32,000 bases of DNA, from contig JAQTNI010000009.1 of assembly GCA_028713935.1 (NCBI GenBank), positions 3,406-35,405 on the forward strand, written 5' to 3'. The notes below the pieces were generated by a model. It was not told the origin of the DNA. It did no database searches and was given only the letters and a program-made list of their open reading frames with translations. Shown piece after piece: positions 7,881 through 26,107 of the stretch. This DNA is from Candidatus Iainarchaeum sp. (GTDB lineage: Archaea > Iainarchaeota > Iainarchaeia > Iainarchaeales > GCA-2688035). Position 1 is the stretch's first letter; each line of letters begins with the position of its first letter. The position numbers were made by a program, and so were the translations under genes.

Positions 7881-7886
7881 TTTTTT

Positions 7887-8783: not shown

Positions 8784-9011
8784 ATGCAGAAAACGCGTGT
8801 GTATAATTTTGTGGTTTTGATTGAGCAGGATTCTGACGGCTGGTTTGTAGCCAAGGTTCCTGATATCCAGGGTTGCCATACTCAGGGAAAAACAATTCCG
8901 CAGGTTTTGGACAGGGTAAAAGAGGCAATACAGGTTTGTTTGGAAGCAGAGGATATTGAATTGCCTCAAATGAAATTTATTGGCTTGCAGACTGTTGAAG
9001 TTGAAGCGTGA
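8784..9011 (+). CDS. hicB: HicB-family (UPF0150) antitoxin
   Basis: Trimmed from track ORF 8763-9011 to the ATG at 8784. YNFVVLIEQDSDGWFVAKVPDIQGCHTQGKTIPQVLDRVKEAIQ is a typical HicB fold motif. Confidence 0.75.
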   Translation: MQKTRVYNFVVLIEQDSDGWFVAKVPDIQGCHTQGKTIPQVLDRVKEAIQVCLEAEDIELPQMKFIGLQTVEVEA

Positions 9012-9017
9012 TTCTTT

Positions 9018-9251
9018 TTGGCGCGTCTAATCCCTATTTCTGGAAAAAAATTATGCAAGCTTTTGGAAAAACTTGGTTTTCAAAAGGTTCATCAAGTAGG
9101 CAGCCATGTTCGTTATATTCATGCAGATGGGCGAAAAACAGTTGTGCCAGTCCATGGCGATGAAGAGCTTGGCATTGGAATTTTTAAGGAAATTTTAAAA
9201 CAAGTGAAAATTTCAAGGCACGAATACGAAAAATTAAGGCAAAAAATATGA
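9018..9251 (+). CDS. hicA: HicA-family mRNA interferase toxin
   Basis: 77-aa ORF with a TTG start. SGKKLCKLLEKLGFQKVHQVGSHVRYIH is a typical HicA motif. It starts 6 nt after hicB. Confidence 0.8.
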   Translation: MARLIPISGKKLCKLLEKLGFQKVHQVGSHVRYIHADGRKTVVPVHGDEELGIGIFKEILKQVKISRHEYEKLRQKI

Positions 9252-10381: not shown

Positions 10382-11257
10382 TCAGTTCATTATTGTTGGC
10401 CGTCTTGATTTTATTATGCCAATGTACATGAATTGCATTATTGTTATTCCTATTAATAATGCCCAGAACATCATTTCGTCTATTTTTATTGCGGGAAAGC
10501 TTCCCAGTATGATAAGAAATGTCAGTCCAAGCGCAGGCGCTATCACTCCAATCATCATGTATGCCAGGGAAAGAATCCTTAGTTGAGAGGAATACATGTT
10601 TATTGCTATTCTCTGGTCTCTTGCAGCGGATTTCACTGTTTCTTTTATTATGCTTGAAATGTCTCCGCCTGCTTTCATTCCGTTTACAAGCTGCCATAAT
10701 GCTTTTCTGAAATATTCGCTTGGGTTGTTTGTGGCAAGCTTTTGGAATACTTCATCGTAAGGCGTTCCAGTGTTTATTTCGTCAACTGCTTTTGCAAATT
10801 CTTTGCTTAATTCGCCATAATTGCTTTTTGCAATCATCTGCATTGCGTCAAAAAGGCTGACTCCGCTTTTTATTTCAATCAGCAAGGTTCTTAGTGCAAA
10901 CAAGAGGTTTTTTTCCAGTTCCCTCTGCCTTTTCCTTATCTGCATTGTGGGGTACATTGAAAATTGGATAAACACTGCCAGTGCCATTATTGCTGCTATT
11001 GTGAATCCCAATAACAAAAAATTTGGAGTGACTTTTGTCAGGACTATTGTGAACAATGCGCCAAGCCATATGAAATAAAAACCTGCCAAAAAAAGCATCA
11101 TTGCAAGGTATTCCCTTATTTGGAATTCCATTCTTGCCTGCTGCAATTGCAATTCCAGGTTGGGAAAAATTCCCTTGATTTTCATTGCCAGCGGGACTAA
11201 TGGCTGTGAAAACCTTCTCAGCATCGGGACAGGGAACAGGTTGAATGGCAGAGTCAT
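10382..11257 (-). CDS. type II secretion system F-domain membrane platform protein (TadB/EpdJ/K-like)
   Basis: 291-aa ORF with one T2SSF domain (LLFALRTLLIEIKSGVSLFDAMQMIAKSNYGELSKEFAKAVDEINTGTPYDEVF...LVNGMKAGGDISSIIKETVKSAARDQR) flanked by TM helices. There is a 4-nt gap to the next platform gene. Confidence 0.8.
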   Translation of the reverse strand: MTLPFNLFPVPMLRRFSQPLVPLAMKIKGIFPNLELQLQQARMEFQIREYLAMMLFLAGFYFIWLGALFTIVLTKVTPNFLLLGFTIAAIMALAVFIQFSMYPTMQIRKRQRELEKNLLFALRTLLIEIKSGVSLFDAMQMIAKSNYGELSKEFAKAVDEINTGTPYDEVFQKLATNNPSEYFRKALWQLVNGMKAGGDISSIIKETVKSAARDQRIAINMYSSQLRILSLAYMMIGVIAPALGLTFLIILGSFPAIKIDEMMFWALLIGITIMQFMYIGIIKSRRPTIMN

Positions 11258-11260: not shown

Positions 11261-12778
11261 TTACAGCTCCGGCTTTTTGTTTTTTTCCACAAGATTTTTT
11301 ATTTCATCAATGTCCTGGTAGCATTGCGCCATTATTTTGCCGACTTCGTTCACATTGTGAATGTCAAATTTTATCATCCAGTTCAATATTTTTGTTTTTG
11401 TTTTTAATTCCTGCTGTATTTCTCCCTGGCTCATTCCTGTGTGCAGTGACAATTCATCATAGAATCTTATGCTTTCATTGTGCGCGACAATCTGGTCATC
11501 GCTGCTTCTCCATCTGTAAATTATGTTTGGCTTTATTTCAAGTTCTTTTCCCCTTTTTTCAGGGATAAATTCCGCTGCTTCAAGCACTCTTCTTGATCCC
11601 AGTCTCCTGTTTCTGAACATTACAATGTTTAAGTGCACTGAATCAAGCATTGAAACTGGGATTGAAACAGGCGGGTTTACAAGCCTTGTGATTGTTTCAT
11701 CGGCTGTGTTTGCATGGATTGTGGTGTAAACACTGTGCCCTGTGTGCATTGCTTCAAACATTACTTCTGCTTCTCTCTGCCTTCTGACTTCTCCAACAAT
11801 CACCCTGTCAGGCCTCATTCTCAATGAATTCACAAGCAAATCAAGCATTGTTATTCCGCCTTTTCCTTCAGGATTCGGCTCTCTTGTTGTCAATGGAACC
11901 CAGTGCAAATAATCGGGAAGCATGAGTTCCCTAGTATCTTCAATTGAAAGCACTCTGTGGTTTGGCTGTATGAAGGGCATGCAGACATTCAAAAAGCTTG
12001 TTTTTCCCGATGCTGTTCCCCCGCTGATAATGATGTTTAATTCGTATTCCATTGCTTCCCATATCAGTGCCATTAGTTCTGCGCTGACTGTTTTTGTTTT
12101 TATAAAATCAGTTACTGTCCATGGGTCTCTTCTGAAGCGCCTTATTGTGACAGTGTTTCCCTTGCTTGAAATTGGAAAAAGAGTTGCGTTTGCCCTGTCG
12201 CCTGTTATGAGATGGGCATCAAGCAATGGCGATAAGATTGTTATTTGTTTTCCAACGCGCCTTGCGATTATGTTTGCATAGTTTTCTATGTCTGCCTCTG
12301 TTTCTATGCGGACATTTGTTTTGAGCCAGCCGTATTTTTTGTGGTAAACCCATACTGGTTCCTGGCTCCTGTTTATGACTATTTCCTCAAGGTTTCCGTC
12401 TGACAAAAGAAATTCTATTCTTCCAAGGCCCAGCATTTCATGCATTAATATTCCAACAAGCGCTTTTTTTGTTTCTTCTGTTGCGGTTGGCAGTTCGGAA
12501 TCAAGCATTTTTTGGGCTTTTTCAACGAATTTGCCGCGGATTTTTTCCACTGCATCCATGTCAAGCTGGCCTGTTCTTGCAGCTGTTTCCGCTACAAGGC
12601 TTTTTTTCAGGTTTGTGAGCAGTGCGCTTGTTCCGGCGCCATAGCTTGGAAAATTCAGGTAATACATGTTTACAAATTCTTTCGGGTCATGGATAATGTT
12701 GGTTTCCACTTTCAGGTTGTCTGTTTCCACTGTGTAAGACTCAATTACCTGGTATTTTCCGTCCATTTCTGCCTGCAT
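11261..12778 (-). CDS. type IV pilus/secretion ATPase of the GspE/VirB11 (ArlI/EpdL/TadA-like) family
   Basis: 505-aa ORF. Walker A IIISGGTASGKTSFLN, Asp box VLSIEDTRELMLP, Walker B/His box DRVIVGEVRRQREAEVMFEAMHTGHSVYTTIHA. Confidence 0.9.
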   Translation of the reverse strand: MQAEMDGKYQVIESYTVETDNLKVETNIIHDPKEFVNMYYLNFPSYGAGTSALLTNLKKSLVAETAARTGQLDMDAVEKIRGKFVEKAQKMLDSELPTATEETKKALVGILMHEMLGLGRIEFLLSDGNLEEIVINRSQEPVWVYHKKYGWLKTNVRIETEADIENYANIIARRVGKQITILSPLLDAHLITGDRANATLFPISSKGNTVTIRRFRRDPWTVTDFIKTKTVSAELMALIWEAMEYELNIIISGGTASGKTSFLNVCMPFIQPNHRVLSIEDTRELMLPDYLHWVPLTTREPNPEGKGGITMLDLLVNSLRMRPDRVIVGEVRRQREAEVMFEAMHTGHSVYTTIHANTADETITRLVNPPVSIPVSMLDSVHLNIVMFRNRRLGSRRVLEAAEFIPEKRGKELEIKPNIIYRWRSSDDQIVAHNESIRFYDELSLHTGMSQGEIQQELKTKTKILNWMIKFDIHNVNEVGKIMAQCYQDIDEIKNLVEKNKKPEL

Positions 12779-12865
12779 AAAAATCTTTTTTTTTCCATTG
12801 ATTTTTTTTAATTTGCCATATTATTAACGGGTTTTGTGGTTATTAAGTTTGCGGATTTTTGGTTT

Positions 12866-15328
12866 TCATTTTCCCAAACTTTTTTCTTTTTTGATTTTTT
12901 TTTCTTTCTTGGGTTTTGAAGGCTTTACATAATCCGCGCTTTCAATTATTGTGTCCCCGAATGCGGGGTACTCTACTTTTATGAGGTGCTGGTCTTCAAG
13001 AATGTTTAAGAGTTCTTCAAGCCGTTTTTTTTCAATTTTGGTTTCTTTCCAGAGTTCCCCTGTCCTTATTTTTCCTTTTTCCCGGATTATCTGCAAAGTA
13101 AGGTCCATGTCTGTTTCAATCCTGAATTTCATTATTTCCTTTTCATTTGTCTTTAATTTTTCTTTTTCCTTGTTTTCAAGAGTGGTGGGAAAAGTCGGGA
13201 TTTCAGCTTCTGACCAGCCGACTTCGCCGGGCTCAATAATCACTCTGCGGGGCTCTTCAGAAGTTTTTTTGAAAAACCTTGTAATGGGCAAAGCCCTTAT
13301 GTGCAATTCTTTTTTTGGCCTTTGCATTCCTTCCACTTTTGCGCTTATTCTCCCCATTTCTTCAAGTTCTTCGCTGCGCGAAGCCCAGCCCTCTTCCCGG
13401 CTTGTCTTTTCTGTTTCTTCATTTCCTGCATCAGCATCAAGAGGTTTTTCGGCTTCAATGTCACCCGGCTTTTCAATTTCAATGGGCTCCTCAATTTTTG
13501 CCTCGTAATTTTTCTGCACCTGCTCTTCTTTTTGAATTATTGTTTCATGCAGTGCCTCATTGACCTGGACATTTGTTGTTTGCTGGCTTTCTTTTTTCTG
13601 TGCTCTCCTGAAAATTCCCCCGAAAAAGCCTTTTTTTGCCTGTTGTGCAGGAACAGTTGTTTTTGCTGTTTGCACTTCAATTTCTTCCTGAGGCAATGCT
13701 GTTTGCTCTTCTGTTATCCCTGAAATTTTGCTGTAATTTGGCGCAGGCGCCTGCACCGCAATTATTTTTTCTTTCGGGGTTTCCGCGCTTTTTTGCATTG
13801 CAGGCAACTGGCCTGTTGCAGTTGTTCCTGTTTGTGTTGCCGTGCTTGTTGTTTGTGGCTGTGTTTCAGGGCTTGTTTCCTGCATTGCTGTTGCCTGCCC
13901 AGGCAAGGCTTTTTCTTCTTCTTTTTGTTTTGTTAGCCAGGGAAACTGGAATCCTTTTTTTTCTATTTCCTGTTCTGCCTGCCTCTGCAATTCGTTCATT
14001 TTTGCGAGTTTTTCAAGGCTTGCAAGCAATTGGCTGCTGTCCAATGGCTTTATTTCCTGCACAATTTTTTTTTCCGGCATTTTGTAATTGTTTAATAATT
14101 CCACAATGTAATTTTCTATTTCCATTATTTTTTCGTCGCTAACCCTGCCTGAAAGCTTTTGCTCTATTGTTTTTTCAAGTTCTTTGCTAAGCCGTTTTTC
14201 CCTGCCTTTGGGGGCTGCTTTTGTTTTTTCAAGGATTTTCTTTTTTTCTTCAAGCTCATAAAGCTTTGCCTGGTAATCCATTACTTTTTCCTGAAAATCT
14301 TGTAGAGGGATTCTGCGCTTGTAAAAATCTATTTCCAGGCGTTTCTGCATTCTTTTCATCTGGTCTATCTGCTGGTCAGTGCTGAGCATTTCCTCGTGGC
14401 TTTCTATGACAATTTTTGGCTTTGGCGATGCCCTTGCAAGGCTTGCTGCCGCAAGAGTAATTGCCTTTGCGGCTTCAGCCAGATCAGTCATTGTTTTCAG
14501 TTCCAATGGCGATTTTGTCTCTTCCCTGAAAATAATCTGGCCTTTTGCCTGTTCAGTTGCAATTTGCTCCATTTCAAGGTTTTCTTTTGCGGAAGAAACC
14601 TTGCTGAGAAGCGCTATCTGCATTTTGTAGTCCCGAATTTTTTTTGTTAGCTGGCTTTTTTTCCTGGTTTGTTCCTCTGAAAGTTTTTTTTCTTCCTGCG
14701 CATGCTTTAACTGGTTCAGTTCCCTCTGGTATCTTGCCTGCCATGATTCAAGCCTGGTTATTTTTGACCTTATTTTTTTCAGGTTTTCTTTTAATGCTCC
14801 GGGCTCTTCCCTTATTTTTTCTGAAACCCCTTCAAGCCTTTCCATTTCAGGCGAAATTGCTTCAGGCTCTCCGCTTATTGCCTGTTCAGCAAACTCTTCA
14901 AATCCTTTTTTTGTTTCAGATGCAGGAATTTCCGGCATTGTTATTTTTTCCAGTTTTTCTTCCCTTGCCTTTCCGCCAAAAAGCCTCCTGAAAATCCTTG
15001 AAAAAAAGCCCTGTTTTTTTCCTGATGTTTTTGTTTCTTCCGCAAACATCCGTTTCCTCGCTGCTTCTTCTATCTGGGATTTTATTATTTCCCTTAAAAT
15101 CGGCTTGTCACCCGAAATCTGGGTTTCAATAATTCTGCCTATTTCGCTTTTCAACTGGTCAAAAGTATGTGCCTGTGCAACAAGAAGCATTCTTTTTGCC
15201 TCATCATCCTTTGCGCCAAGGCCCTGCAAGGTTTTAATTATTTTGTCTTCTGTTTCTCCTTCTCTCAGCATTTCGCCTATTATTTTGATTATTCCTTTTT
15301 CACTTTTTTCTTCAGGCATAAAAATCAT
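12866..15328 (-). CDS. Glu/Lys-rich coiled-coil protein with two MinD-MTS-like amphipathic motifs and a C-terminal winged-helix-like domain; function unknown
   Basis: 820-aa ORF directly upstream of the ATPase gene with no TM segment. Motifs are GKKQGFFSRIFRRLFGGKA (nt 14966-15022) and AKKGFFGGIFRRAQ (nt 13598-13639). The C-terminal LQIIREKGKIRTGELWKETKIEKKRLEELLNILEDQHLIKVEYPAFG lies at nt 12959-13132. Confidence 0.7.
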   Translation of the reverse strand: MIFMPEEKSEKGIIKIIGEMLREGETEDKIIKTLQGLGAKDDEAKRMLLVAQAHTFDQLKSEIGRIIETQISGDKPILREIIKSQIEEAARKRMFAEETKTSGKKQGFFSRIFRRLFGGKAREEKLEKITMPEIPASETKKGFEEFAEQAISGEPEAISPEMERLEGVSEKIREEPGALKENLKKIRSKITRLESWQARYQRELNQLKHAQEEKKLSEEQTRKKSQLTKKIRDYKMQIALLSKVSSAKENLEMEQIATEQAKGQIIFREETKSPLELKTMTDLAEAAKAITLAAASLARASPKPKIVIESHEEMLSTDQQIDQMKRMQKRLEIDFYKRRIPLQDFQEKVMDYQAKLYELEEKKKILEKTKAAPKGREKRLSKELEKTIEQKLSGRVSDEKIMEIENYIVELLNNYKMPEKKIVQEIKPLDSSQLLASLEKLAKMNELQRQAEQEIEKKGFQFPWLTKQKEEEKALPGQATAMQETSPETQPQTTSTATQTGTTATGQLPAMQKSAETPKEKIIAVQAPAPNYSKISGITEEQTALPQEEIEVQTAKTTVPAQQAKKGFFGGIFRRAQKKESQQTTNVQVNEALHETIIQKEEQVQKNYEAKIEEPIEIEKPGDIEAEKPLDADAGNEETEKTSREEGWASRSEELEEMGRISAKVEGMQRPKKELHIRALPITRFFKKTSEEPRRVIIEPGEVGWSEAEIPTFPTTLENKEKEKLKTNEKEIMKFRIETDMDLTLQIIREKGKIRTGELWKETKIEKKRLEELLNILEDQHLIKVEYPAFGDTIIESADYVKPSKPKKEKKIKKEKSLGK

Positions 15329-15346: not shown

Positions 15347-16498
15347 TCAGCTTGTTCCAATTTTAAGGTTTGTAAAGCCGGATTTTCCGACATTAAAATC
15401 AAAAGCATTGAATTTAACAAGAGCAATCGGCTCTTTGAAAATAATTTTTGTTGATGCAATTACTGGTGCGTGCTGGTCTGCTTTGTTGTCCATTCCAATA
15501 ATTACTTTCGGGTCGAAATCTTCTAATTTTGACTCATTTAGGATAAAAATATCTGTATAGCCTTCGCCCGCAAGTTTTAGGCTGAAATAATTGTCTGCTG
15601 TGCCAACATGATTTGAGCCTTCTGTAGAACAGCAGGAAAGGTCGCAGGGAGGCTGTGGGTCGCAATCCGCAATGGGGATCTGGCTATTGATATTAACATA
15701 AGGATTGGCATTTGATTGGAGAAATTCGTTTAACAGTGGGTTTTTTGAGCCATCCCCGAGGTCGCCATAATATTCCCATTTTTGTATCTGAATTGGCATG
15801 CCTGCATTTGGGCCTGTTGTTGGCTTTGGAATTGTCACATTAAAATCAATCATTCTTATTTTGCTTATGTCAAAGCTGCATCCATCATCTTCTCCATCAG
15901 TAAAAATTTGCAGCAAGGTTCCGTCAGGCTGCGGATTATAGGATATGCATTCGTCCAAAATCAGGTATGTGAACTTGTCGTTTCCTCCCCAATCGGAATT
16001 TTTAGCAGCCCTTGCAGTTATGTTTAAGTCTCCGTTTATGTTTTTGTCTGAAACAAAAATCGAGTAAAGGTTCAGCGCATCATACATCGCTTTGAGCTGT
16101 TCATCATCGCTGCTTATCGGGGTTTCCTGTGAAATTTCTATCCATCCGCATCCGCTTGGCGAAGCATTTGGGCCTGTGCAGGGGCAAATGTCATGGTCTT
16201 CACTTTCGGGGCAGCCATTTTCTTGGACACAGTCATCTTTGCAGGCCATGTTTCCCGCATCATATTCAAACGGAGTTAGAATCCTGCTCTGCAGCCTTCC
16301 TGCATAGCCTGTTTTTACTGCCAATGTTTCGTTGTAAATGTTTGCAAAGCCAGTGTTTACTGCGTCAAAAGCGGTTTCTTCAACAGTGCCTTGTTTTTGC
16401 CCGATTGTTGTTTGTTTTACCCCGCTTCCTGCAAGAATTATTGCCAGTCCCATTAGGAATATTACAAATGCAAGGAAAAAGCCTTTTTTGCTGTTCAT
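15347..16498 (-). CDS. membrane-anchored or pilin-like Cys-rich extracellular protein, function unknown
   Basis: 383-aa ORF. MNSKKG/FFLAFVIFLMGLAIILAG is a possible class III signal or a signal anchor. A Cys-rich segment follows (ACKDDCVQENGCPESEDHDICPCTGPNASPSGCGW). The ATG abuts the stop of the upstream gene (TAAATG at 16498/16499). Confidence 0.6.
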   Translation of the reverse strand: MNSKKGFFLAFVIFLMGLAIILAGSGVKQTTIGQKQGTVEETAFDAVNTGFANIYNETLAVKTGYAGRLQSRILTPFEYDAGNMACKDDCVQENGCPESEDHDICPCTGPNASPSGCGWIEISQETPISSDDEQLKAMYDALNLYSIFVSDKNINGDLNITARAAKNSDWGGNDKFTYLILDECISYNPQPDGTLLQIFTDGEDDGCSFDISKIRMIDFNVTIPKPTTGPNAGMPIQIQKWEYYGDLGDGSKNPLLNEFLQSNANPYVNINSQIPIADCDPQPPCDLSCCSTEGSNHVGTADNYFSLKLAGEGYTDIFILNESKLEDFDPKVIIGMDNKADQHAPVIASTKIIFKEPIALVKFNAFDFNVGKSGFTNLKIGTS

Positions 16499-19400
16499 TT
16501 ATTTCACCCAGGCAGCGTATTGCACTTTGAAGTAATAAACTTTTGATTCGCCCAGGCAGTATATTTGTGCTGTGTTGTGCAAGCTGCAGTCTTTTGCACC
16601 GCTTATCACTCCCCAGATATAACCTTCGCCTAACAATTTTGTGTTGCTAGTTGAAACAGTGTAATTTGGCGCTGCAGGCTGGTATTGTAAATTTTTATCT
16701 GCAGTTATGGAAAAAGTGCCGCAGTTTCCTGTGCAACCTGACGGTGGCAGGTCTGTGTCAATGTGGGTTGTCATTGTGTTATTTTTATAAAATCCAATGT
16801 AAAGGTCTTTTGGCGCTGTGAATCCAACACAGTTTAATTCAAAATTTAGTCTTGTGTCTTGAGGCCCATATATTGTTCCGCAGTCTGTTCCTATGCATGT
16901 GAATTTTATCTGGCAGTCCCTGTAGCCAAATGGCACTGTTTGCCTGCATGTTGCCAGGTCGTATGGGCAGTTTGGCATGCAACTACTGTCGCATTCAGTC
17001 TCTGTTCCCCAAATGTAATTATTCTGGTCTTTTATTATTGTTGTCTGCGGAGGCGGAAATTTTATTGTATCGCTTTGGCAGTATTCTCCTGTGCAGGGAA
17101 TTCTTTCCTTGAATGTCTGGCTTTTGTATTCTCCTGCAATGTCAACATCAAAAGTTATGCTTTGGTTTGTCCACTCGGGGTTTGTTGTGCAGGCAGGAGT
17201 GTCATCTGCTTTTAGGCATTTGTAAGCGTCTGTTCCAATGGTTTCGTATTTTTCGCATTTGCATATTTCTGTTCCCGGCTCGGCTTCTATGGTTATTTTT
17301 GTATTTGGAATTGCTGTTCCAATTTCTTCTGCAATCAATGCGTATATTTCCGTTAAAGTGCTTTGGTCTGCCGCAAAATAATATCTTCCGCACTGCTGGA
17401 CTTTGTTAATTTCCAGGCTTGGCCAGTTTGAAAAACATTCGGGATATTTTGGGTTTGAACCGTTCATTCTGGCTTCTTCGCAGGCTCCTGTTGCATCATA
17501 GCTTGTGCAGGGGTCTTTTGCAATGTCCCTTAAATCCTCTGCGGCAGCATCTCCGCCAAAACCAATTGCATAAACAGTAATTCCTGTGCTTCTTGCATTA
17601 TCCGCTTGCAGTATTGCATATTGCACTGCCTCCGCGGGTGTGCAAGCTGTTCCTCCTTCACATTTGTTTGCCTGTCCGTCTGTAAGCAGCACAATGAATT
17701 TTTTGTTTTGTGTATTAAATGCCGCGCTTGCAATTCCTATTGCGTCTCCAATGTTTGTTTCTCCGCTCGGATTCATTGTTTTGGCAGGGTCTGGGCCAAA
17801 ACTGTCAGTGCCGTTTAAAGTTCCTATCAAATTTGTTTTTCCAGCTGCATTAAGAAGAATCGGGCCTTGGTTAAGCACTGCCGTAGTTGAATAGCTCGCT
17901 ATTCCCATTTTGTCTTCTGATTTCCATTGTGCGTTGTTTATGAATGTTATTGCTGCCGAAAGCGCAGCGTCAATTCTTTTTATAGACCAATCAATGTTGT
18001 AACTTGTAAGATATTCAGCCCAGCCTATTACACTGTAATCTCCTGCTGGGATTGGCTGGCCTGTTGCAGTGTTGTCATAAATTATGCTCTGGCTTGTGCA
18101 TGTGTCCATTGAATCCGCGTTTGTGCAATTTACTCCGTAACCGTTATTGTCTAACCAGCCTTTTCTTGGGCGGGGATAATACCATTTCAAATTTGAGCTT
18201 CCAGATATTGGATTTTCAAATCCAATTGCTCCGCCTGCACAGACAGCGCCAGAGTCGCCTATAAGTGATGTGGAAATTTTGAGCCCGCGGAATTTATAAT
18301 TGTCTGTGATTGTTGTTGTGTCCAGGTATGTTGCTGAACTTTCTATGCTTGGCAGGCTTGCAACAGCATTGCTTGGGTTTGTCGGGCAGTTTGTTTCTCC
18401 GGGAATCATTGGTGTTGTTGTGCTTGTGCAGGTTGCACCGCTGCAGGTCCCCCCGCTTATTGAATCTGTCCTGCCAAAATTTCCAAAAACAAGGCCAAAA
18501 GAATTGCTTACAGTAGTTTGAACATTGAATGTTACTGCAGAATCAGACCAGGCCCATAATTCATAATCCCCTGTTGTTTCAAATGGTCCCGATAAGCTGC
18601 TTCCCCAATTTATTGAGCAGGGAGTTCCCTGTGCGCAAGTGCTGCTGGTCCAATCAACTGCCCCGCTGCTATTTTTGTGCGTAACATAAAATCTTGGCCA
18701 TCTGCAGTCTCCGCTGTAATTCTGGTAATTGCTGATTTGCCAGCCAATTCCGTAAATTTGATTATATTTTACAAGATCATAAGGAAAAGTGTATGAACTA
18801 ATTTTTTGCCAGTTCCCGTAATTGCTGCAGTCAGTTGGATTTTCTCCTTCCTGATATGTTCCTTCGTGTGTTCCTGTTCCGCTTGCACTTAAACCTGAAG
18901 CAGTAATTGAAGCCGGATTTTGCCGTAAATAAACATAATATCCTACTGGTGAATCGCTCCAGGCGTTTACTCCGTAGTTGTAGCCATAGCTTGGCCCCAG
19001 GCTTAATACTGTGTTTCCGCTTATGGCCTCGTAATAGAGGTAGCCGACGTTGTTTACTATTGCGCCGTTTGGTTGTGTTACCCAGATTCCTTGTGTTCCA
19101 TCTCCTGCATAATTATTTTTGCATGCCCCGTTGTATGTTGTTCCTGATGAAATGAAATAAAGAGTGTCATTGCTTAAAATTTTGTTCAAGGTGCCTTGGC
19201 TTGAAAAATCATATGAGCCTGAGCTTTGCTTGTTTGTATACGCGGTTGATGCTTTGCTTAAAGGGCAATTCGTGGTTGTTTGTGCCGGCGTGTCTGGATT
19301 TAAAACACAGCTAGGCCCGCCTCCGTTTAGCCAATTGTACAATGCTCCTGTGTTATTGTTGCCTGAGGAATCCGAAGCAATATTTCCGCTTGATTCGTTA

Positions 19401-20950
19401 AATGCCCAGTATCCAACCAAATTTGCATTGTTATTGAAAACCCCGTTATAATGCTGGTTAATTTCTACTGCAGTAAGCACCCTGTGGTAAACTCTTACTT
19501 CGTCTATTATGCCGTTAAATTCGTTTGTGATTGGCGGGACTCCTGGCCAGCCTGTTAAAGAATCACTGCCTGTTTTCCAAAATCCTGCATAATTTTTGGC
19601 TGTTCTTGTGATTGTGTCTCTTGCCACTGGGTTTGGGTTTCCGTCAACATAAAGTTTCATTCCTACTGTGCTGCTTAGTGTTGCTACAACATGGTGCCAT
19701 TGCTGATTATTGTATCCTACCATGCTGCTTAGATTTGCAACAATATTTTGCTGTTGTTGGCTATTGTCTCCTGCCAATTGAGGAACTACCATTGAGGGGC
19801 TTGTTATTACTTTTTTTGTTGTGCCGGAAATAATTCCAAAGGAAAGAGTGCCATTGTCGCGCATATAAATTAGCCTGTCTGTATTTGTGCTTGTTCCTAC
19901 CTGGCTGTTTCCAAAGCCTATCAGCCTTCCGCCATTTATGTTATCCGAAGTTGTTTTGAACCATAATTCTATGGAAAAATTTGTGGGATTTGTAAAGCCA
20001 TTATATGTTGTTACAAAAGTGTTTGCTGAACCAAACCTTAGTGCGTGGCTTCCTCTTTTTCCCGGTGCAACCCATTTTTCCGTTGTGTTTGTGCAGTATC
20101 CATAATTGATTTGCCCGATTGGGCTTGCAGTTGCTATTGGCGAGTCCATGTCAAATTTTGACATTGTAAGGCTTCTGTCTATTATTGTCATTATTGCTAT
20201 TGGGTCTCTTATTCCGCTTTTTTCGCTTATTGTGACTGTTGCCACTTCATTGGCATCTACTCCGTCTTCAGAATCATAACAGTACATTTTTGATGTTGGC
20301 ACAAAAAGTTCCGGCGTCTCAGTGCCTGGAGTGTTTGTTGTACTTACTTTTGTTGTTATTGTTGTTGCTGTTTCGTCCAATTGCAGCGTTGTGTTTTTTT
20401 TGTTTTCAGAGGCTGTTTCTATTATGCAGTTGTTTGCAATGTTTCCTTTCATATAGGGCTGCCTTTTCATGAATGCCTGGCTTCCAGTGTAAATTTCCTG
20501 GTTTGAGGGTATTTGCTGGCCTCCTGTTGCTTCTGAAACTTTGTTGAAGCATTCGTTGAATTGTGTTGTGCCAGGAGGGGGATTTCTGCAGCTTGCCAGG
20601 TCTGTGTTTTTTTGTTCAAATTGTTCTATTTGTATGTTTAAATCCATGTTTTCCGGCAATATTTTTTTCATTTCAAAGTAAAGCAAATCTGCGTCAAAAT
20701 TTGTAAGCGGGTTTCCTGTGTTGTCTACAAATATTTGCCCTATTATGCCGTTGTTGTCCATTGCAGTCACTGCATCGTCAAGCATTTGTTTTGCGTTTGC
20801 CTGCCGGGTTATGCTTGCAGTTGGCGCTTCCGTCATTATTCCCAATCCAAGATAGGATATCAGGGCAATGAGAATTGCTATTGCAAACAATGTGTCCAAT
20901 GAAATTACAAATCCTTTTTCACGGGTTTTTTCAGCAATCATTTTTTCCAA
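16499..20950 (-). CDS. giant pilin-anchored adhesin: class III signal-like N-terminus, split vWA domain with a nested LamG/ConA-like lectin domain, Cys-rich C-terminus
   Basis: 1483-aa ORF. The first codon is TTG at 20950, and the ATG at 20941 (MIAEKTREKG/FVISLDTLFAIAILIAL) is the more likely start. MIDAS-like IIDRSLTMS lies at nt 20159-20200. LamG elements (FSIELWFK, QWHHVVATL, KLYVDG, IIDEVRVYHRVL) lie at nt 19436-20053. The vWA remainder (GETNIGDAIG, KFIVLLTDGQAN, ITVYAIGFGGD) lies at nt 17318-17983. Confidence 0.85.
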   Translation of the reverse strand: MEKMIAEKTREKGFVISLDTLFAIAILIALISYLGLGIMTEAPTASITRQANAKQMLDDAVTAMDNNGIIGQIFVDNTGNPLTNFDADLLYFEMKKILPENMDLNIQIEQFEQKNTDLASCRNPPPGTTQFNECFNKVSEATGGQQIPSNQEIYTGSQAFMKRQPYMKGNIANNCIIETASENKKNTTLQLDETATTITTKVSTTNTPGTETPELFVPTSKMYCYDSEDGVDANEVATVTISEKSGIRDPIAIMTIIDRSLTMSKFDMDSPIATASPIGQINYGYCTNTTEKWVAPGKRGSHALRFGSANTFVTTYNGFTNPTNFSIELWFKTTSDNINGGRLIGFGNSQVGTSTNTDRLIYMRDNGTLSFGIISGTTKKVITSPSMVVPQLAGDNSQQQQNIVANLSSMVGYNNQQWHHVVATLSSTVGMKLYVDGNPNPVARDTITRTAKNYAGFWKTGSDSLTGWPGVPPITNEFNGIIDEVRVYHRVLTAVEINQHYNGVFNNNANLVGYWAFNESSGNIASDSSGNNNTGALYNWLNGGGPSCVLNPDTPAQTTTNCPLSKASTAYTNKQSSGSYDFSSQGTLNKILSNDTLYFISSGTTYNGACKNNYAGDGTQGIWVTQPNGAIVNNVGYLYYEAISGNTVLSLGPSYGYNYGVNAWSDSPVGYYVYLRQNPASITASGLSASGTGTHEGTYQEGENPTDCSNYGNWQKISSYTFPYDLVKYNQIYGIGWQISNYQNYSGDCRWPRFYVTHKNSSGAVDWTSSTCAQGTPCSINWGSSLSGPFETTGDYELWAWSDSAVTFNVQTTVSNSFGLVFGNFGRTDSISGGTCSGATCTSTTTPMIPGETNCPTNPSNAVASLPSIESSATYLDTTTITDNYKFRGLKISTSLIGDSGAVCAGGAIGFENPISGSSNLKWYYPRPRKGWLDNNGYGVNCTNADSMDTCTSQSIIYDNTATGQPIPAGDYSVIGWAEYLTSYNIDWSIKRIDAALSAAITFINNAQWKSEDKMGIASYSTTAVLNQGPILLNAAGKTNLIGTLNGTDSFGPDPAKTMNPSGETNIGDAIGIASAAFNTQNKKFIVLLTDGQANKCEGGTACTPAEAVQYAILQADNARSTGITVYAIGFGGDAAAEDLRDIAKDPCTSYDATGACEEARMNGSNPKYPECFSNWPSLEINKVQQCGRYYFAADQSTLTEIYALIAEEIGTAIPNTKITIEAEPGTEICKCEKYETIGTDAYKCLKADDTPACTTNPEWTNQSITFDVDIAGEYKSQTFKERIPCTGEYCQSDTIKFPPPQTTIIKDQNNYIWGTETECDSSCMPNCPYDLATCRQTVPFGYRDCQIKFTCIGTDCGTIYGPQDTRLNFELNCVGFTAPKDLYIGFYKNNTMTTHIDTDLPPSGCTGNCGTFSITADKNLQYQPAAPNYTVSTSNTKLLGEGYIWGVISGAKDCSLHNTAQIYCLGESKVYYFKVQYAAWVK

Positions 20951-21040
20951 TCCGGCTTTAATTTATTTTATTATAATTAATATTTTTTTAATATAAAATT
21001 GTATTGCCAATGTTTTTTTGGGCAGTTTTAGAAACCAAAG

Positions 21041-21670
21041 TCAATTGTATGCCCAGAGTTCAATTGTTGCTGTTCCGCTGTAGCCAGCCCCTTCATAATA
21101 AACTATTCTTTTTTGCGCAATTACTTTTTTTGCGTATGCGCTCGGGGTTACGCCTGTTTCCATTTCTGTTTCCGAACCGCGTATTTTTTCCTTAATCAAT
21201 TTTTTTTCCGATGCATTATTAGGGCTAAAATAATAAATCTGGAAATAATAATTCATGTCTCCCAGGAGCAATAATTTTGCCTTTGTTTTTTCATAATCGC
21301 CAAAGCAGTTTGCCTCGCAATCAGGCCAGATTTTTCCATATTCCACAAATTTTGCAAGCTTGTTTGAGTCTATTGCCCTGTCTCTTTTTGCAAGGCCAAT
21401 GAACAGCACATTGTCAATGCTTGGGGCAAATTGCCAGTCTGTTCCGCCGTTTATTTTTTCGCCTGGGCTTTTTACAATAAAATTCAGTGTTCTTGCGCTC
21501 GTTGCAGCCATTTCATAGTCTTTCAGCTGGTTTTCTGCAAAAGAATTCTGGTTTTCCCAGATTGTAACCGCAATTGCAAGCACTGCGAGAAAAATTGTTG
21601 TTCCAATGACTATGTCAAGGGAAACAGCCTGTGCTTTTTTGTCACTGCCCAGTGAATACAACAAAACCAC
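21041..21670 (-). CDS. pilin-like protein (class III signal peptide, Gln +1), minor pilin candidate
   Basis: 209-aa ORF. SDKKA/QAVSLDIVIGTTIFLAVLAIAVTIW. It overlaps the upstream pilin-like gene by 29 nt, so the exact start is uncertain. Confidence 0.6.
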   Translation of the reverse strand: MVLLYSLGSDKKAQAVSLDIVIGTTIFLAVLAIAVTIWENQNSFAENQLKDYEMAATSARTLNFIVKSPGEKINGGTDWQFAPSIDNVLFIGLAKRDRAIDSNKLAKFVEYGKIWPDCEANCFGDYEKTKAKLLLLGDMNYYFQIYYFSPNNASEKKLIKEKIRGSETEMETGVTPSAYAKKVIAQKRIVYYEGAGYSGTATIELWAYN

Positions 21671-22052
21671 CTTTTTTTGACAATTTATAGTTTCTAACTG
21701 TTAAAGAAATTCCACTTGCGTTTGTGTCCCCATGATCCTGATCAATCTGTGCGTTTCCAAAATAATGGCACGAATAAAGCCCCACTGTTATCTGCCCAGG
21801 ATTTCCTATGATTTTTTGGATTGCGACATTTTCTCTTGCAACAAAAATATTTTTTTCCGCTATTCCCTGGCTTGAATAAATTTCTGAAATCGCATCTGCT
21901 ATTTTGTTGCATTCAATGCCGTCTGAATTTATGCCTGTTATAAAATTGGTTTGAACTGTTTGCTGCGCATAAGCAGTTACTCCAATCAAGAGCAATGTCA
22001 TTGCAACAAGCGCAGCAATGAGGAATTCAAAAGAAACCTGGGCTTTTTTCAA
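21642..22052 (-). CDS. pilin-like protein (class III signal peptide, Gln +1), minor pilin candidate
   Basis: 136-aa ORF. MKKA/QVSFEFLIAALVAMTLLLIGVTAYA. Confidence 0.7.
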   Translation of the reverse strand: MKKAQVSFEFLIAALVAMTLLLIGVTAYAQQTVQTNFITGINSDGIECNKIADAISEIYSSQGIAEKNIFVARENVAIQKIIGNPGQITVGLYSCHYFGNAQIDQDHGDTNASGISLTVRNYKLSKKGGFVVFTGQ

Positions 22053-22061
22053 GGTTCCACC

Positions 22062-22589
22062 TTACTTTTCCAGCCGGATTAATTTCCTGTCAGTCCAGCT
22101 TACTTTAATTTTGTACCTGAAATTGTTTATCAAAATCGCAGTGTCAGTCCCGTCAGGTATTATAAGCCTTGCTTTTGTGGGATAAAGCAATTCGTTTCCA
22201 GAAATTTCAATTACTTTTACTGCGCTTGATTTTATGCAGTCATCCCCATTAGAGCACTGCTTGCCTGCGCCGCTGCAATTGCAGTTTGCTCCCTGTGCTC
22301 CATCACAGCCAATCATTTCCGCGTTTGTTTTGCAGAGGCTGTAGATGCTTATGCCTGTCACTTCGCCTGGCCAGCTTACTTCTGCAAATTGGACATTGCC
22401 CGGGCCCATTGCATAAACAAGGTTTATTGTTTGTACAAGATTGTCAAGGCTTTCGCCTGCCTGTTGTGTGCTAATGTTCTGGCTTGTTGTTGCAAGTGAA
22501 GCGCTGAACAGGACAATGACTATTACCATTGCAAAAACGCTTACCATCAGGTATTCCATTGAAGCCTGCGCGGTTTTTTCTACTTTCAT
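22062..22589 (-). CDS. pilin-like protein (class III signal peptide, Gln +1), minor pilin candidate
   Basis: 175-aa ORF. MKVEKTA/QASMEYLMVSVFAMVIVIVLFSASL, with a Cys-rich loop (CDGAQGANCNCSGAGKQCSNGDDC). Confidence 0.7.
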   Translation of the reverse strand: MKVEKTAQASMEYLMVSVFAMVIVIVLFSASLATTSQNISTQQAGESLDNLVQTINLVYAMGPGNVQFAEVSWPGEVTGISIYSLCKTNAEMIGCDGAQGANCNCSGAGKQCSNGDDCIKSSAVKVIEISGNELLYPTKARLIIPDGTDTAILINNFRYKIKVSWTDRKLIRLEK

Positions 22590-22654
22590 AGCACCAAAAA
22601 TAATAAGGGAATTCTAATATTTAATTTAATCCATTGCTGTTACAGCCAAGAGTT

Positions 22655-25600
22655 TTAGCTGCAATTGCCGCTGTTCCAGGTTTTGCCTGCAAGAACACAA
22701 ATTTTGTCTGCTGTCAAGGCTTTTTTCCAGATTGAAACATCGTCAATCAAACCAGCAAAATGACCCGGTTCATCCTGCCAGCCAAAACCAATATACGCCG
22801 CATGCAAATCGCTTGCATCAGAATAATCATGTAAAATCAGGGCAGGATTACTGGATTCGCCAGCCAGGCTTCCATCAATATAATACTTCCAGCCAACGCC
22901 GCTTTCAAAAACAAAAGCAACCTGATGCCACTCATTTTCGGCAATTGTTCCAGTGGAAGTAGGCCAAGAATTAGACTGGTTGCTTCCGTTCCGAACCATT
23001 GAAACCAAATGGCCAAAAGAATAAGAAGAAGAACTGCCGGCACTGAAATAATCAAATCCGCCTAAATGTTGGGTTACAATATTTATCTGATTCACGTAAT
23101 CCGGTTTAACCCAGGCAACAACAGTAGTAGAACTGTTCTCGCCGCCATACGTTGAAAGAGCACTCAAAGAACTGTCAAAACGAATATGGTCAGGGCCAGA
23201 AACACCACCGCGGAAAGAAAAAGCACCACTACCGTTGTGGCCTCCAGTTGCCTGACAAGTCGCTCCCACAACTGTTCCGTTACGATGATTTCCGGACTGG
23301 TCCCAGGCATTGCAATGGTCAAAACTCCAATAAGCAACCAAGTCAGGGTCGCAATCGTTTGGGCAACTGGTAAAACTTTCCCCGCCAGCATTTTCACAAA
23401 TGCCATTATTGTTGCAAGAAGGGAGTCCATAAGAATGGCTACTCCAATCTAAAGGGCCAGTATTATCAGCAACCTCTACTCCATCAGAAAAACCGTCAAA
23501 ATCAGAATCCGGATTAGTCGGGTCAGTACCGCGGGCAAACTCCTGCGAATTGATAAGGCTATCATTATCAGGGTCGCCAAGGCCATTCTGCGAAGTAATA
23601 TTCCCAAAATACTGCACTTCCCAATCATCCCGCAAACCATCCCCATCTGCATCCAAACCCTCAGTAGTAAAGGAATCGACAGAACCCCAAAGAATCTCAT
23701 TCAAAATATCGGCAGCCCGATTTGAAGAACGGATGCGGAAATTATAATCAGTATTCGGATTCAAACCAGAAAGCGTTATGCTATGAAAAGTCGTAAAAGA
23801 AGGGTCACCTATGATCCCATCTGGGCCACTAAAATAGGTAGTAGGATGTGTCTCATGATAGGGATTGTACCACCAAGAACCATTGCTTGTGTAAGCAACC
23901 TCGCTATCAGAAGGCAAATTAGTCTCCCACTGAATCGTAAAAGAAGTGCCAGTAACTGGTATTATCTGAATATTTGTCGGAGCCCTAAACCAGCCATTCT
24001 GTGCATCAACTGGCCAAGCAGTGTCAAGATTTGATGAATACGAAGCTTTCCTCTGATCATAAAGAGGCTTAAAATAACTCAGCCAAGCACCAGAACGGCT
24101 AAATTGTGCACTATTAAGATTCTGCGCCAAAACACGGAACATTTCTTTTGTGGAAATAGCAGCACGCGCACTACTAACGCGAATATTTGAGCCAATTGCC
24201 TGGGACATTCCATATCCTGAAACAAAAAATCTAAAATAAGGGTTATTAGGGCTCTCTACTTCAGCCATGGGCCCGGTTTCTCCTGTAAGCGTGTAATCAA
24301 CATACGCATCAATCATGACTGCCCTTCGGCCAGTATAAGCCAAATAAGCATCCCAGGCATCAACAGAATCATGATGATAAATAATTCCGTTATCACCAAT
24401 ATCTGTGCGGACTTGGCGAATAAAATTATAATCCTGTTGCAAATCCCCTGCATCCGCATTGTCAAAATACCAGCCATCAAAATTATTTTCTTCCTGGAAT
24501 TCTTTCATCCAAGACAAGGTTACCTGGATATCCTGCTGGTTCCACCAGTATATGGATGGCGCAGACATATAAGTAATGACTTTGAAATTGTGTGCATGGG
24601 CAAAAGAAACAAAATCCTGCAATAACTGTTTGTCAATGTCCCGGATTTTATACCCCATAATGCCAGAAGGCAAAAGCACCGGGACTTCCCCTATTTTACC
24701 GGGAGTGTTTTCATATGCAACGCTTGCCCAAAGCAAAAAAACTCCAAAACCGTCGTTAACATAATTGTCCACATTTGTCCCGGACATCAGATTAGTCAAG
24801 TCATCAGGGGTGTATAAGAAATGAACAAAAGGCTTTGAGCTTGCCCCATATAATTTTTCAAAATCAAATTTTTTTGGGGGAAAAACCATGTTTCCCATTG
24901 AACTGCCGGCTCCCAAAGAAATGCTTGTAGAATCTGTTGTTTCATTTGAAACAACTGGGTTTCCCTGCATTTTTGCATGCAAAGAACCGCCATACCCGTC
25001 TGTCCAAATTCTGTCTGTTCCTGTTCCTTTGTTCCAGGGCGCAGCAGCAACCAAATTGTTGTAGGTGTAGGCGAATGGCTCTTTGGCTTCAATAATGAAA
25101 AAAGAATCCGAATTGAAAACAAAGCGTGCTTTGTCGCTTTGCACAATTGCCTGTATTGTTGTTGCGGATTCAACAGTTAAATTTGAAATTGTGTTTTCAA
25201 AAGAGATTTCTGCAACTTTTCTGGGGGTTTCTGTGTCATTATTGGTTGCGGGGTCAATGCGGCGCCATAATTCAATTCCGTCTTGTTTTATAATGTACAA
25301 GGCGCCTGTGGTTGTAATTTCAATTTGATCTTCGTCTTGAAAAGCAGAAAAGATGCTCATGCCAAAAAACCCGTTGCCAGTGCAGTCCAGTGGGCAGTTG
25401 CTTGCTGTTTCGCCTGCCTCGCATGTTCCGTTGTTGTTGCAAACGGCTTGTCCTGTGCATTGGCAGTTTGTGCAGGTAAATCCTGCTTGGCATTGCGCTT
25501 GCCCTGTCCCGTCGCATTGTTCTGTTTGGCCTTCGCTGTTTGGGTCGGTTATAATATTGTCTCCGCAATAGGTTGTGCAGTCTGTTGGGCAAGTGGCATT

Positions 25601-26107
25601 GGTTTCTCCTGTTTCGCATGTTCCGTTTCCACAGTTGCTTGTTGTTTGGCAGTCAGTGTCGTTTAAAGGAGTGCAGGTTGCTGGGCAGCAGTTGTCTCCG
25701 TTTGTGCAGGTTGTTATGTCTGTGTAGGTGCAGGTTTGGCTTGTGCAGGTTGCTGTTTTGCAGTTTTGTGATGTGCAGTCTGCTTCTGTTGTACAACTTG
25801 TTCCTGTGTTTGTTTTGTTGAGGCAGTCTGGTGTTATTAGTATTGCTGTTGTTCCTGTGCATTTGTTTGCTGCGAATGACCATTCGCAGTCTGAGTATTG
25901 GCAGTTTCCTGTTCCATCCGGGTCGTTTCCTGCTTGGCCACATTGTGTGGATGAGAATTTTGCGCAGATTGTGTTCAGGACTTCTATTTGTGTGCTGTTG
26001 ATATTTGTGCCGCTGGCATTGAAGAGTATTACAATTGCCAGTGCTGCCACTATTACTGCCCCGCCAATTATCAGCAGGTATTCCAAACTGCTTTGCGCGT
26101 TGTTCAA
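22655..26107 (-). CDS. giant pilin-anchored multidomain surface protein: Cys-rich modules, TIM-barrel glycoside-hydrolase-like region, Fn3, Ca-binding TSP3-like repeats, C-terminal LamG
   Basis: 1150-aa ORF with a TTG start at 26107. MNNA/QSSLEYLLIIGGAVIVAALAIVILF is the class III signal. Cys/Thr-rich region at nt 25379-25966. Hydrolase-like region (FVSFAHAHNFKVITYM, NNFDGWYFDNADAG, GIIYHHDS) at about nt 24008-24850. Fn3-like (FTIQWETN...TDYNFRIRS) at nt 23663-23995. DADGDGLRDDWE / DPDNDS / DSDFDGFSDG at nt 23453-23656. LamG (LVAYWSFD...EWHQVAFVF...YYIDG...GLIDDVSIWKKAL) at nt 22703-23347. Confidence 0.85.
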   Translation of the reverse strand: MNNAQSSLEYLLIIGGAVIVAALAIVILFNASGTNINSTQIEVLNTICAKFSSTQCGQAGNDPDGTGNCQYSDCEWSFAANKCTGTTAILITPDCLNKTNTGTSCTTEADCTSQNCKTATCTSQTCTYTDITTCTNGDNCCPATCTPLNDTDCQTTSNCGNGTCETGETNATCPTDCTTYCGDNIITDPNSEGQTEQCDGTGQAQCQAGFTCTNCQCTGQAVCNNNGTCEAGETASNCPLDCTGNGFFGMSIFSAFQDEDQIEITTTGALYIIKQDGIELWRRIDPATNNDTETPRKVAEISFENTISNLTVESATTIQAIVQSDKARFVFNSDSFFIIEAKEPFAYTYNNLVAAAPWNKGTGTDRIWTDGYGGSLHAKMQGNPVVSNETTDSTSISLGAGSSMGNMVFPPKKFDFEKLYGASSKPFVHFLYTPDDLTNLMSGTNVDNYVNDGFGVFLLWASVAYENTPGKIGEVPVLLPSGIMGYKIRDIDKQLLQDFVSFAHAHNFKVITYMSAPSIYWWNQQDIQVTLSWMKEFQEENNFDGWYFDNADAGDLQQDYNFIRQVRTDIGDNGIIYHHDSVDAWDAYLAYTGRRAVMIDAYVDYTLTGETGPMAEVESPNNPYFRFFVSGYGMSQAIGSNIRVSSARAAISTKEMFRVLAQNLNSAQFSRSGAWLSYFKPLYDQRKASYSSNLDTAWPVDAQNGWFRAPTNIQIIPVTGTSFTIQWETNLPSDSEVAYTSNGSWWYNPYHETHPTTYFSGPDGIIGDPSFTTFHSITLSGLNPNTDYNFRIRSSNRAADILNEILWGSVDSFTTEGLDADGDGLRDDWEVQYFGNITSQNGLGDPDNDSLINSQEFARGTDPTNPDSDFDGFSDGVEVADNTGPLDWSSHSYGLPSCNNNGICENAGGESFTSCPNDCDPDLVAYWSFDHCNAWDQSGNHRNGTVVGATCQATGGHNGSGAFSFRGGVSGPDHIRFDSSLSALSTYGGENSSTTVVAWVKPDYVNQINIVTQHLGGFDYFSAGSSSSYSFGHLVSMVRNGSNQSNSWPTSTGTIAENEWHQVAFVFESGVGWKYYIDGSLAGESSNPALILHDYSDASDLHAAYIGFGWQDEPGHFAGLIDDVSIWKKALTADKICVLAGKTWNSGNCS

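Follow-up and report, generated by a model that had tools for sequence, protein, structure and literature searches.

We examined a window of 32,000 nucleotides (nt) from Candidatus Iainarchaeum (DPANN; contig JAQTNI010000009.1), in which a minus-strand type IV pilus operon carries the gene for a hypothetical protein, the target of this analysis. DPANN archaea are thought to rely on surface filaments for contact with hosts and surfaces, and we know of essentially no characterization of the cytoplasmic side of their pilus machines. The operon and its associated genes are arranged as follows, in window coordinates, with product lengths in amino acids (aa):

15347..26107, minus strand: six genes upstream of the target with class III (prepilin) signal peptides, including the next two
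22655-26107, minus strand: giant adhesin-like pilin, 1150 aa, class III signal, fn3/TSP3/LamG domains
16499-20950, minus strand: giant adhesin-like pilin, 1483 aa, class III signal, LamG and VWA domains
12866..15328, minus strand: the target
11261..12778, minus strand: FlaI/TadA-like secretion ATPase, 505 aa, the invariant downstream neighbor (T2SSE, E=9e-35)
10382-11257 and 9361-10377, minus strand: two single-domain platform genes (Pfam T2SSF)
713-1423, minus strand: KaiC-like ATPase (PF06745, E=2e-63), followed by a DUF7504 protein (66-713, minus strand)

We treat the pilus genes as one operon because the intergenic gaps in the window fit this arrangement, the target and the ATPase gene being 87 nt apart; the ATPase matches the FlaI model at E=1e-81, under the equivalog cut-off. 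In 11 of 11 loci, a member of the target's family lies directly upstream of T2SSE-T2SSF-T2SSF: these are the window and 10 others, five from close relatives (38-66% identity) and five from divergent members (~20-30% identity) that lack the N-terminal domain described below. Wherever the contig reaches upstream, the family member is preceded by a giant pilin, which in most loci contains VWA, and by a pilin-like gene of ~300-560 aa. This synteny answers a check proposed in an earlier note made from the DNA sequence alone, namely whether the gene keeps company with pilus ATPases in related genomes, and gene order of this kind reads as the signature of a machine component. The KaiC-like/DUF7504 pair lies ~8 kb beyond the platform genes in the window, displaced by other genes; since the pair comes directly after the T2SSF genes in the related locus L001, the KaiC-like protein probably serves this pilus system as an ArlH-like partner.

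Three further features of the operon vary in their conservation. The T2SSF platform is encoded by two separate genes (291 and 338 aa), like bacterial TadB/TadC and unlike the two-domain ArlJ/PilC type, and this split pair is kept across all related loci examined. The giant pilin with fn3/TSP3/LamG domains (22655-26107) has no counterpart in loci L001 and L003. The pilus ATPases of L003 (12467-15490), L006 (2581-5491) and L016 (6038-9088) reach ~1000 aa because an intein with a LAGLIDADG homing endonuclease lies inside the T2SSE domain; the window ATPase is intein-free.

Gene product and protein family

The target is a genuine open reading frame (ORF) at 12866..15328 on the minus strand, of 820 aa when counted from the first ATG, as the earlier note had it. 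Its product is identical to a deposited hypothetical protein of a Candidatus Iainarchaeum metagenome-assembled genome, for which NCBI places the start at Met4. All homologue N-termini align at this residue (MPxEKSE...; MPEEK... in the target), and because the homologues and the NCBI annotation both begin there, Met4 (nt 15319) is probably the true start, giving a product of 817 aa. The composition is rich in E (15.6%), K (13.4%) and Q (6.7%), as had been read from the sequence. Over the plus strand, AT skew is strongly negative across the target gene (to -0.48, window positions 12000-15000) because the coding strand is purine-rich in its K/E codons; the same codons generate long non-coding shadow ORFs on the plus strand, for example 12951-13508 and 13636-14142.

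We found no transmembrane (TM) segment in the target, the highest 19-residue Kyte-Doolittle mean being 1.0, in agreement with the earlier note; its N-terminus, MIFMPEEKSEKG, has no hydrophobic stretch, signal peptide or class III signal. Lacking both a TM segment and a signal peptide, the protein is, from its primary sequence, cytoplasmic. This bears on whether the target could be an exported or attachment coiled-coil fiber, as has been proposed for the pilus-locus coiled-coil proteins (CCPs) of cluster-2 DPANN, which are encoded beside CpaF/TadC and for which a parallel was drawn with sigma-1, a viral attachment protein (Hamm et al., 2024; PMC11291902). We regard such a role as extremely improbable: the target has no signal peptide, class III signal or TM segment, it carries a winged helix, a K/E-rich composition and a polybasic tail, its heptad signal is limited, and it is set beside those coiled-coil proteins by description.

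A word-indexed homologue search with the full target returned only 6 relatives (38-66% identity), and the same type of search with alignments A2 and A5 returned 7 and 2 proteins, the index apparently being swamped by low-complexity words. The family came to light when a profile was run exhaustively against 1.84 billion cluster representatives: 682 proteins matched at E<=1e-3, 182 of them at E<=1e-10, and dissection with sub-profiles revealed that the family is modular. About 100 representatives (200-1100 aa) combine a helical CORE with the C-terminal module and have no N-domain, while only 4 species-level genomes, labeled Iainarchaeum or unclassified archaeon, encode the complete N-CORE-C arrangement. 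Few members carry organism names; wherever a phylum-level label is present, it is Diapherotrites/Iainarchaeum. No Pfam or NCBIfam family scored above its cut-off over any part of the target, and by these searches the family is unannotated and confined to one phylum. Its members share four parts: a cationic amphipathic helix, the helical core, an extended winged helix of overall acidic character, and a polybasic tail. An automatic JGI label on one paralogue ('SMC interacting...') was disregarded as a coiled-coil artefact.

Amphipathic helix, winged helix and other modules

An AlphaFold model built from a 50-sequence alignment (mean predicted local distance difference test, pLDDT, 67) is all-helical except for the winged helix, with about a third of the chain predicted to be disordered. 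The parts of the target, from N- to C-terminus and all on the minus strand, are:

15029..15301: N-domain, aa 10-100, a predicted helical bundle (H13-22, H27-36, H41-70, H76-100), conserved in alignment A1
14966..15022: motif 1, GKKQGFFSRIFRRLFGGKA, aa 103-121, core GFFSRIFRRLFGG, the proposed membrane-binding element
14546..14803: long antiparallel helical hairpin, aa 176-261 (H176-213, H218-261), pLDDT 93-97, starting with a SWQxRY-type motif
14216..14509: CORE-A, aa 274-371, the close family's most conserved block (AAKAI..PKPKIV..EIDFYKRRI..LYELEEKKK), with invariant A1 columns
13955..14185: CORE-B, aa 382-458, a predicted helical module (pLDDT 83-92) that adjoins the C-module in the wider family
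13394..13909: variable T/Q/P/E-rich disordered linker, aa 474-645, pLDDT below 50, poorly aligned in A1
13592..13639: motif 2, AKKGFFGGIFRRAQKK, aa 564-579, a lineage-specific basic/aromatic motif within the disordered linker
13124..13261: conserved segment before the winged helix, aa 690-735 (EPRRV..W-E-E-P..P-T), with invariant columns and a conserved K/E pattern
12929..13114: winged-helix domain, aa 739-800 (TD[FM]D ... YP[PA][IF]G ... Y), identified with AlphaFold and Foldseek
12869..12928: polybasic C-terminal tail, aa 801-820, net charge +8, recognized also from the family's tails

Motif 1, which lies exactly where the earlier note had placed it, contains the top-ranked cationic amphipathic 11-mer of the target, with a hydrophobic moment (muH) of 0.72-0.76, a hydrophobicity (H) of 0.5-0.7 and a charge (z) of +3. 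On the same scale the membrane-targeting sequence (MTS) of E. coli MinD scores muH 0.41, H 0.27 and z +4, so that motif 1 equals or exceeds it in both moment and hydrophobicity. A helical wheel places six of six F/I/L residues within a 180-degree arc, with three Arg, Ser and Gly residues opposite, and AlphaFold predicts a helix at aa 108-117. What is kept in all full-length relatives is the position and amphipathic character of this element rather than its sequence: in each of the 7 N-domain members a cationic amphipathic helix lies 6-15 residues past the N-domain, and the RLFGG string of motif 1 is conserved in no orthologue. The earlier expectation that motif 1 is conserved and helical is thus upheld at the level of position, character and predicted structure.

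Members without an N-domain display the same feature at their N-termini. Cationic amphipathic windows occur in the first 70 residues of 61 of 78 such proteins, where shuffled sequences lead one to expect 13.7 +/- 3.1 (maximum 22), and their density there is 7-fold higher than elsewhere; MAKKRGIIARVIGAISRMLLGGKRK, GIISDFLSRIFGKKK and MGFFQSIMELFGLRKKK are examples of these opening elements. These comparisons point to the cationic amphipathic helix as the conserved hallmark of the pilus-linked family.

Motif 2 behaves differently, so that of the 'two MinD-like motifs' described earlier only motif 1 stands as a conserved element and the other becomes a lineage-specific labile copy. It exists, beginning at nt 13592 rather than 13598 (a difference of 6 nt), and ranks second among the target's cationic amphipathic windows (muH 0.61). 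Neither its supposed conservation nor its supposed helicity held: only the closest relative, P0002, retains it, P0003 and P0007 show degenerate remnants, and AlphaFold renders it as coil (pLDDT below 40). Other relatives carry similar KK-G-[FL]F-G strings at different positions, often at the extreme C-terminus. Given this weak retention and the similar strings elsewhere in relatives, motif 2 behaves like a labile extra copy.

The turnover of these motifs is also what one would expect of short linear motifs that bind protein. The target might be a soluble adaptor or chaperone whose amphipathic segments insert not into lipid but into a hydrophobic groove on another protein, for example the N-domain of the ATPase or a cytoplasmic domain of T2SSF; the motifs change in position and copy number and are placed in disordered regions, and the targeting sequence of FlhG docks in a protein groove in one of its states (PMC6803595). 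Against this, the conserved trait is physicochemical, a hydrophobic arc with basic flanks and no defined sequence, which fits lipid better; the N-domain paralogues described below use real TM anchors; and the polybasic tail is consistent with anionic lipid as well. We therefore consider this adaptor unlikely.

KKGF, part of motif 2, recurs in the target. The earlier note had recorded it at aa 140 and 457, and a third copy lies at aa 565; 0.018 occurrences are expected by chance, and none of 20000 shuffles reached three. The copies at aa 140 and 457 are not kept beyond the closest relative. Two pilins of the operon have predicted cleavage sites of the form [KR]KG|F (MNSKKG|FFLAF and REKG|FVISL), and this, with a recurrence of KKGF far above chance, could mean that the KKG|FF copies mimic the neighboring prepilin sites and act as pseudo-substrates or competitors for the peptidase or platform. 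In most members, however, the basic cluster comes after the hydrophobic segment (as in GIISDFLSRIFGKKK and MGFFQSIMELFGLRKKK), and many have no KG prefix. The hydrophobic stretch of ~20 residues that characterizes class III signals is missing from the motifs, which moreover do not co-vary with pilin N-termini (in L001, pilin KKGVFF and motif KARGFIAG), and we judge prepilin mimicry very unlikely.

The polybasic tail is positive in 96% of 79 family members (mean +6.3). It follows a winged helix whose presence the earlier note had proposed and which the model and structural matches bear out: aa 740-797 adopt the canonical H-beta-H-H-beta-beta topology at pLDDT 93-96, and the top 50 Foldseek matches in the PDB are all winged helices (root-mean-square deviation 1.2-2.2 A over ~60 residues), among them RPC39, MarR/ArsR, ROK, ESCRT-II SNF8, TFE and Z-alpha. 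A helix at aa 717-735 (pLDDT ~72) extends the domain. With the C-module profile, the best PDB match was the peptide-binding CdvB/ESCRT-III winged helix of Sulfolobus (2xvc), at a marginal E=0.01, followed by SNF8. Pfam TFIIE_alpha fell just under its cut-off (E=2e-4; 21.6 vs 22.9 bits), and other winged helix-turn-helix (wHTH) models were likewise below theirs (TrmB 23.2 vs 25.6, Lrs14 21 vs 90 and ArnR 11.5 vs 400 bits).

Across 105 family sequences, T739, D742 and L777 never vary and G791 is kept in 99%; the best-conserved residues of the domain, namely T739, D742, L777, the YP[PA][IF]G turn and Y800, are structural. Helix H3 has a conserved basic cap (K767/K768/R769), the residue at its exposed positions E772 and E778 is acidic in 87-88% of cases, and the wing holds no basic residue conserved across the 105 sequences. 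The net charge of the domain is -4 in the target and -0.8 on average in the family. Because the H3 face is acidic, the wing is devoid of conserved basic residues and the net charge is negative, the evidence leans towards a protein as the ligand of the winged helix.

The same properties bear on a role in transcription, in which the winged helix and tail would bind pilin promoters while the amphipathic helix retains the protein at the membrane or motor until the state of assembly triggers its release. The fold resembles those of DNA-binding repressors and factors (MarR, ArsR, ROK, TFE), models for Lrs14, Csa3-HTH and ArnR gave weak matches, the basic cap at the start of H3 and the polybasic tail would suit nucleic acid, and the membrane-bound ArnR/ArnR1 set a precedent, since they regulate a type IV filament operon in archaea (PMC4307647). 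The negative charge of the domain in the target and the family, the acidic E772 and E778 on H3, and the wing without conserved basic residues speak against this reading, as do the best sequence-level PDB matches, first to the peptide-binding CdvB winged helix and then to ESCRT-II SNF8. An invariant place beside the ATPase in a structural operon is, moreover, more typical of a machine subunit. A membrane-sequestered regulator, whose logic would be akin to that of membrane-bound ArnR or of FlgM-type coupling of assembly to expression, thus strikes us as rather improbable.

The N-domain (pLDDT 83-93 over aa 11-60) is restricted, among pilus-linked members, to the Iainarchaeum subclade, and a PDB search with it returned no solved relative, only designed helical proteins (a three-helix miniprotein, E=0.001). 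It also occurs outside the family: ~37 cluster representatives of ~215 aa (P0077-P0151) consist of the N-domain, a coiled coil and two C-terminal TM helices. Since these free-standing paralogues are anchored by two TM helices, they argue that the N-domain works at the membrane. No pilus genes lie near them in the three loci examined, L008 (915-1583), L009 (5288-5956) and L018 (5535-6182), and the genomic context in these loci gave no functional clue. In L008 and L009 the paralogue always follows a 228-aa gene with a TM segment and a beta-rich product that has no Pfam match.

Between the N-domain and the linker lies the helical core. The hairpin at aa 176-261 is a candidate oligomerization or coiled-coil element in the model, and an [AS]-W-x2-R motif marks the start of its first long helix (aa 176-213, ~14690-14803), reading SWQARY in the target and AWEGRR, AWQTRR or SWRSRK in distant members; this motif may be a functional site. 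CORE-A, matched across ~100 cluster representatives, forms a second predicted hairpin (H317-336 and H342-371, pLDDT ~95). A SHOCT-like motif considered within it (EIDFYKRRIsLxDFQxK) was dropped, having no Pfam match even at E<=1. When heptad a/d registers were compared with shuffled sequences, only aa ~169-217 and ~309-372 exceeded 99% of the null; with two such segments and about a third of the chain disordered, the earlier description of a protein dominated by coiled coil and long heptad stretches was overstated. The T/Q/P-rich linker was correctly recognized: aa 481-510 are 87% P/T/Q/S/G/A, and the disorder predicted over aa 474-645 coincides with an insertion relative to the wider family. 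Foldseek comparison of two full-length models with the PDB yielded no match for the N-domain or the helical core, and a PDB sequence search with the full protein gave only Beclin-1 coiled-coil noise (E~0.16).

Proposed role at the pilus motor

We observed operon membership, a distinctive pattern of conservation, amphipathicity, a cytoplasmic topology and a winged-helix fold, and from these we think it somewhat more probable than not that the target is a peripheral-membrane accessory subunit of a type IV pilus machine peculiar to Iainarchaeota, acting as a scaffold or regulator of the pilus motor. In such a subunit, the cationic amphipathic helix of motif 1 (aa ~105-119) would let the protein dock, with no TM segment, to the cytoplasmic side of the membrane, assisted by the polybasic tail and, in the target's lineage, perhaps by the labile KKGFF-type motifs. 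The helical hairpins (aa 176-261 and 317-371) would self-associate and so raise membrane avidity, as for weak MinD-type sequences. The universally conserved CORE-B and extended winged helix would contact the FlaI-like ATPase and/or both T2SSF proteins at their cytoplasmic faces, and possibly the KaiC-like ATPase too; contact with the motor would serve to scaffold, position or gate assembly.

Known systems offer precedents. A single MinD MTS binds weakly, and two or more copies are needed (PMC6803595); the MTS of Haloferax SepF suffices to localize GFP, so amphipathic targeting works in archaea (PMC8187382); and FlaX, a coiled-coil scaffold anchored in the membrane, binds FlaI and the KaiC-like FlaH (PMC4307647). 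The earlier note's proposal agrees well with the data in so far as it describes a peripheral-membrane accessory of the ATPase and platform (11 of 11 loci, motif 1, 61 of 78 members).

Several considerations weigh against this role. Membrane binding itself, oligomerization and the identity of the bound partner are all inferred, and because the helical core has no recognizable relative, nothing can be transferred by homology. AlphaFold confidence on motif 1 is low (pLDDT ~50), as is expected of a segment that folds on lipid. Amphipathic helices can equally be protein-binding motifs, and a winged helix with a conserved KK(R) cap, next to a polybasic tail, could bind nucleic acid. The heptad signal is modest, and any ring or filament formation would be proposed purely by analogy.

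A more elaborate version of the accessory role is speculative and, in our estimate, has a small chance of being right: the target may be a reversible, valency-dependent membrane switch, whose weak lipid-binding elements (the amphipathic helix, the labile KKGFF copies and the polybasic tail) engage only when the hairpins oligomerize around an active ATPase and platform. The winged helix would then alternate between the motor and another ligand, possibly nucleic acid, and the state of pilus assembly would be coupled to gene expression or machine positioning. The N-domain would, on the same model, mark a wider membrane-scaffold system of Iainarchaeota into which the pilus machine plugs.

Elsewhere in the window, a cluster of toxin-antitoxin/defense type (5528-9251) lies between the platform genes and conserved CoaE/CTP-transferase genes, and is missing at the corresponding position in L007, L014 and L015. 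It contains:

8763-9011 and 9018-9251: HicB and HicA
7887-8597 and 7122-7880: AbiEi-like protein and AbiEii
5528-6046: PIN-domain protein

Comparison with known systems

The known proteins most like motif 1 in their membrane-targeting sequences are MinD, FtsA, SepF and MinE, in each of which a short amphipathic helix presents an aromatic/aliphatic face between basic flanks. Motif 1 follows the i, i+1, i+4, i+5, i+8, i+9 pattern and contains RLFGG, as in KGFLKRLFGG of E. coli MinD, and a dependence on valency like that of MinD-type sequences is plausible by analogy. The MinD sequence is C-terminal, whereas the amphipathic helix of the target is internal (aa 105-119) and that of relatives without the N-domain is N-terminal. 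No ParA, MinD, CbiA or AAA_31 match was found in the target with Pfam or NCBIfam even at E<=10, and the same scans gave no actin-like or SepF domain. The missing MinD-type domain, the internal position and the unconserved RLFGG indicate that the likeness to MinD, which the earlier note had pointed out, is convergent rather than homologous. More important than this likeness is the emergence of the amphipathic helix as a hallmark across a pilus-linked family of a single phylum, which provides a natural set of amphipathic targeting sequences for membrane-targeting tests on archaeal lipids.

Winged helices of known families share the canonical topology of the C-terminal domain, which is itself acidic overall and reaches no family cut-off. 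Its extra N-terminal helix is also found in the 'extended' winged helix of TFE. ArnR-type regulators place an N-terminal wHTH before C-terminal TM helices, while the winged helix of the target is C-terminal and there is no TM helix. In ESCRT-III/CdvB a Snf7 core precedes the winged helix; the target has no Snf7 match, and only the winged helix is alike.

Among pilus-associated proteins, arCOG07564 of halobacterial subclade 4F (Makarova, 2016; PMC4858521) and the DPANN CCPs (Hamm et al., 2024; PMC11291902) resemble the target in being helix-rich and encoded beside a pilus ATPase/TadC. They occur in Halobacteria and cluster-2 DPANN, the papers name no winged or amphipathic helix, and what they have in common with the target is operon context. 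TadZ/CpaE, PilM and the cytoplasmic part of GspL share with the target an operon logic and a presumed role in linking or positioning the ATPase and platform; TadZ is ParA-like and PilM and GspL are actin-like, and the target has neither fold. The earlier note saw in TadZ and UpsX/AapX positional analogues without evident homology, and our empty Pfam and NCBIfam scans are in line with this. The family is, by these scans and with arCOG07564 and the CCPs compared by description, without a recognizable homologue among the known accessory proteins of type IV filaments.

ArlX/FlaX is the closest functional analogue. Like the target, it is lineage-restricted, cytoplasmic, rich in helices or coiled coil and attached to the membrane (probably so in the target), and it is encoded between the filament genes and those for the ATPase and platform; its KaiC-like partner FlaH (PMC4307647) has a possible counterpart in the KaiC-like ATPase of the target's neighborhood. 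FlaX has an N-terminal TM anchor and no winged helix, whereas the target has an amphipathic helix and a basic tail in place of a TM segment. The central coiled coil of ArlX/FlaX is needed to form a ring of ~30 nm; the target has two predicted helical hairpins (aa 176-261 and 317-371), whose heptad signal is modest. No archaellum accessory model was matched in Pfam or NCBIfam, the presence of an ArlX model in these collections being unconfirmed. On balance, we find it slightly more probable than otherwise that the target resembles ArlX, PilM and TadZ in function and is homologous to none of them.

Together, these comparisons suggest that the function of the target most likely fills a known niche. 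What is new is an unannotated, phylum-restricted family that is the invariant operon partner of a pilus ATPase and has a clear modular anatomy. If it does act as a scaffold, it would represent another independent solution, beside ArlX, ArlCDE, PilM, GspL and TadZ, to the problem of holding a filament ATPase at its platform, and one in which the scaffold itself does so without any TM segment.

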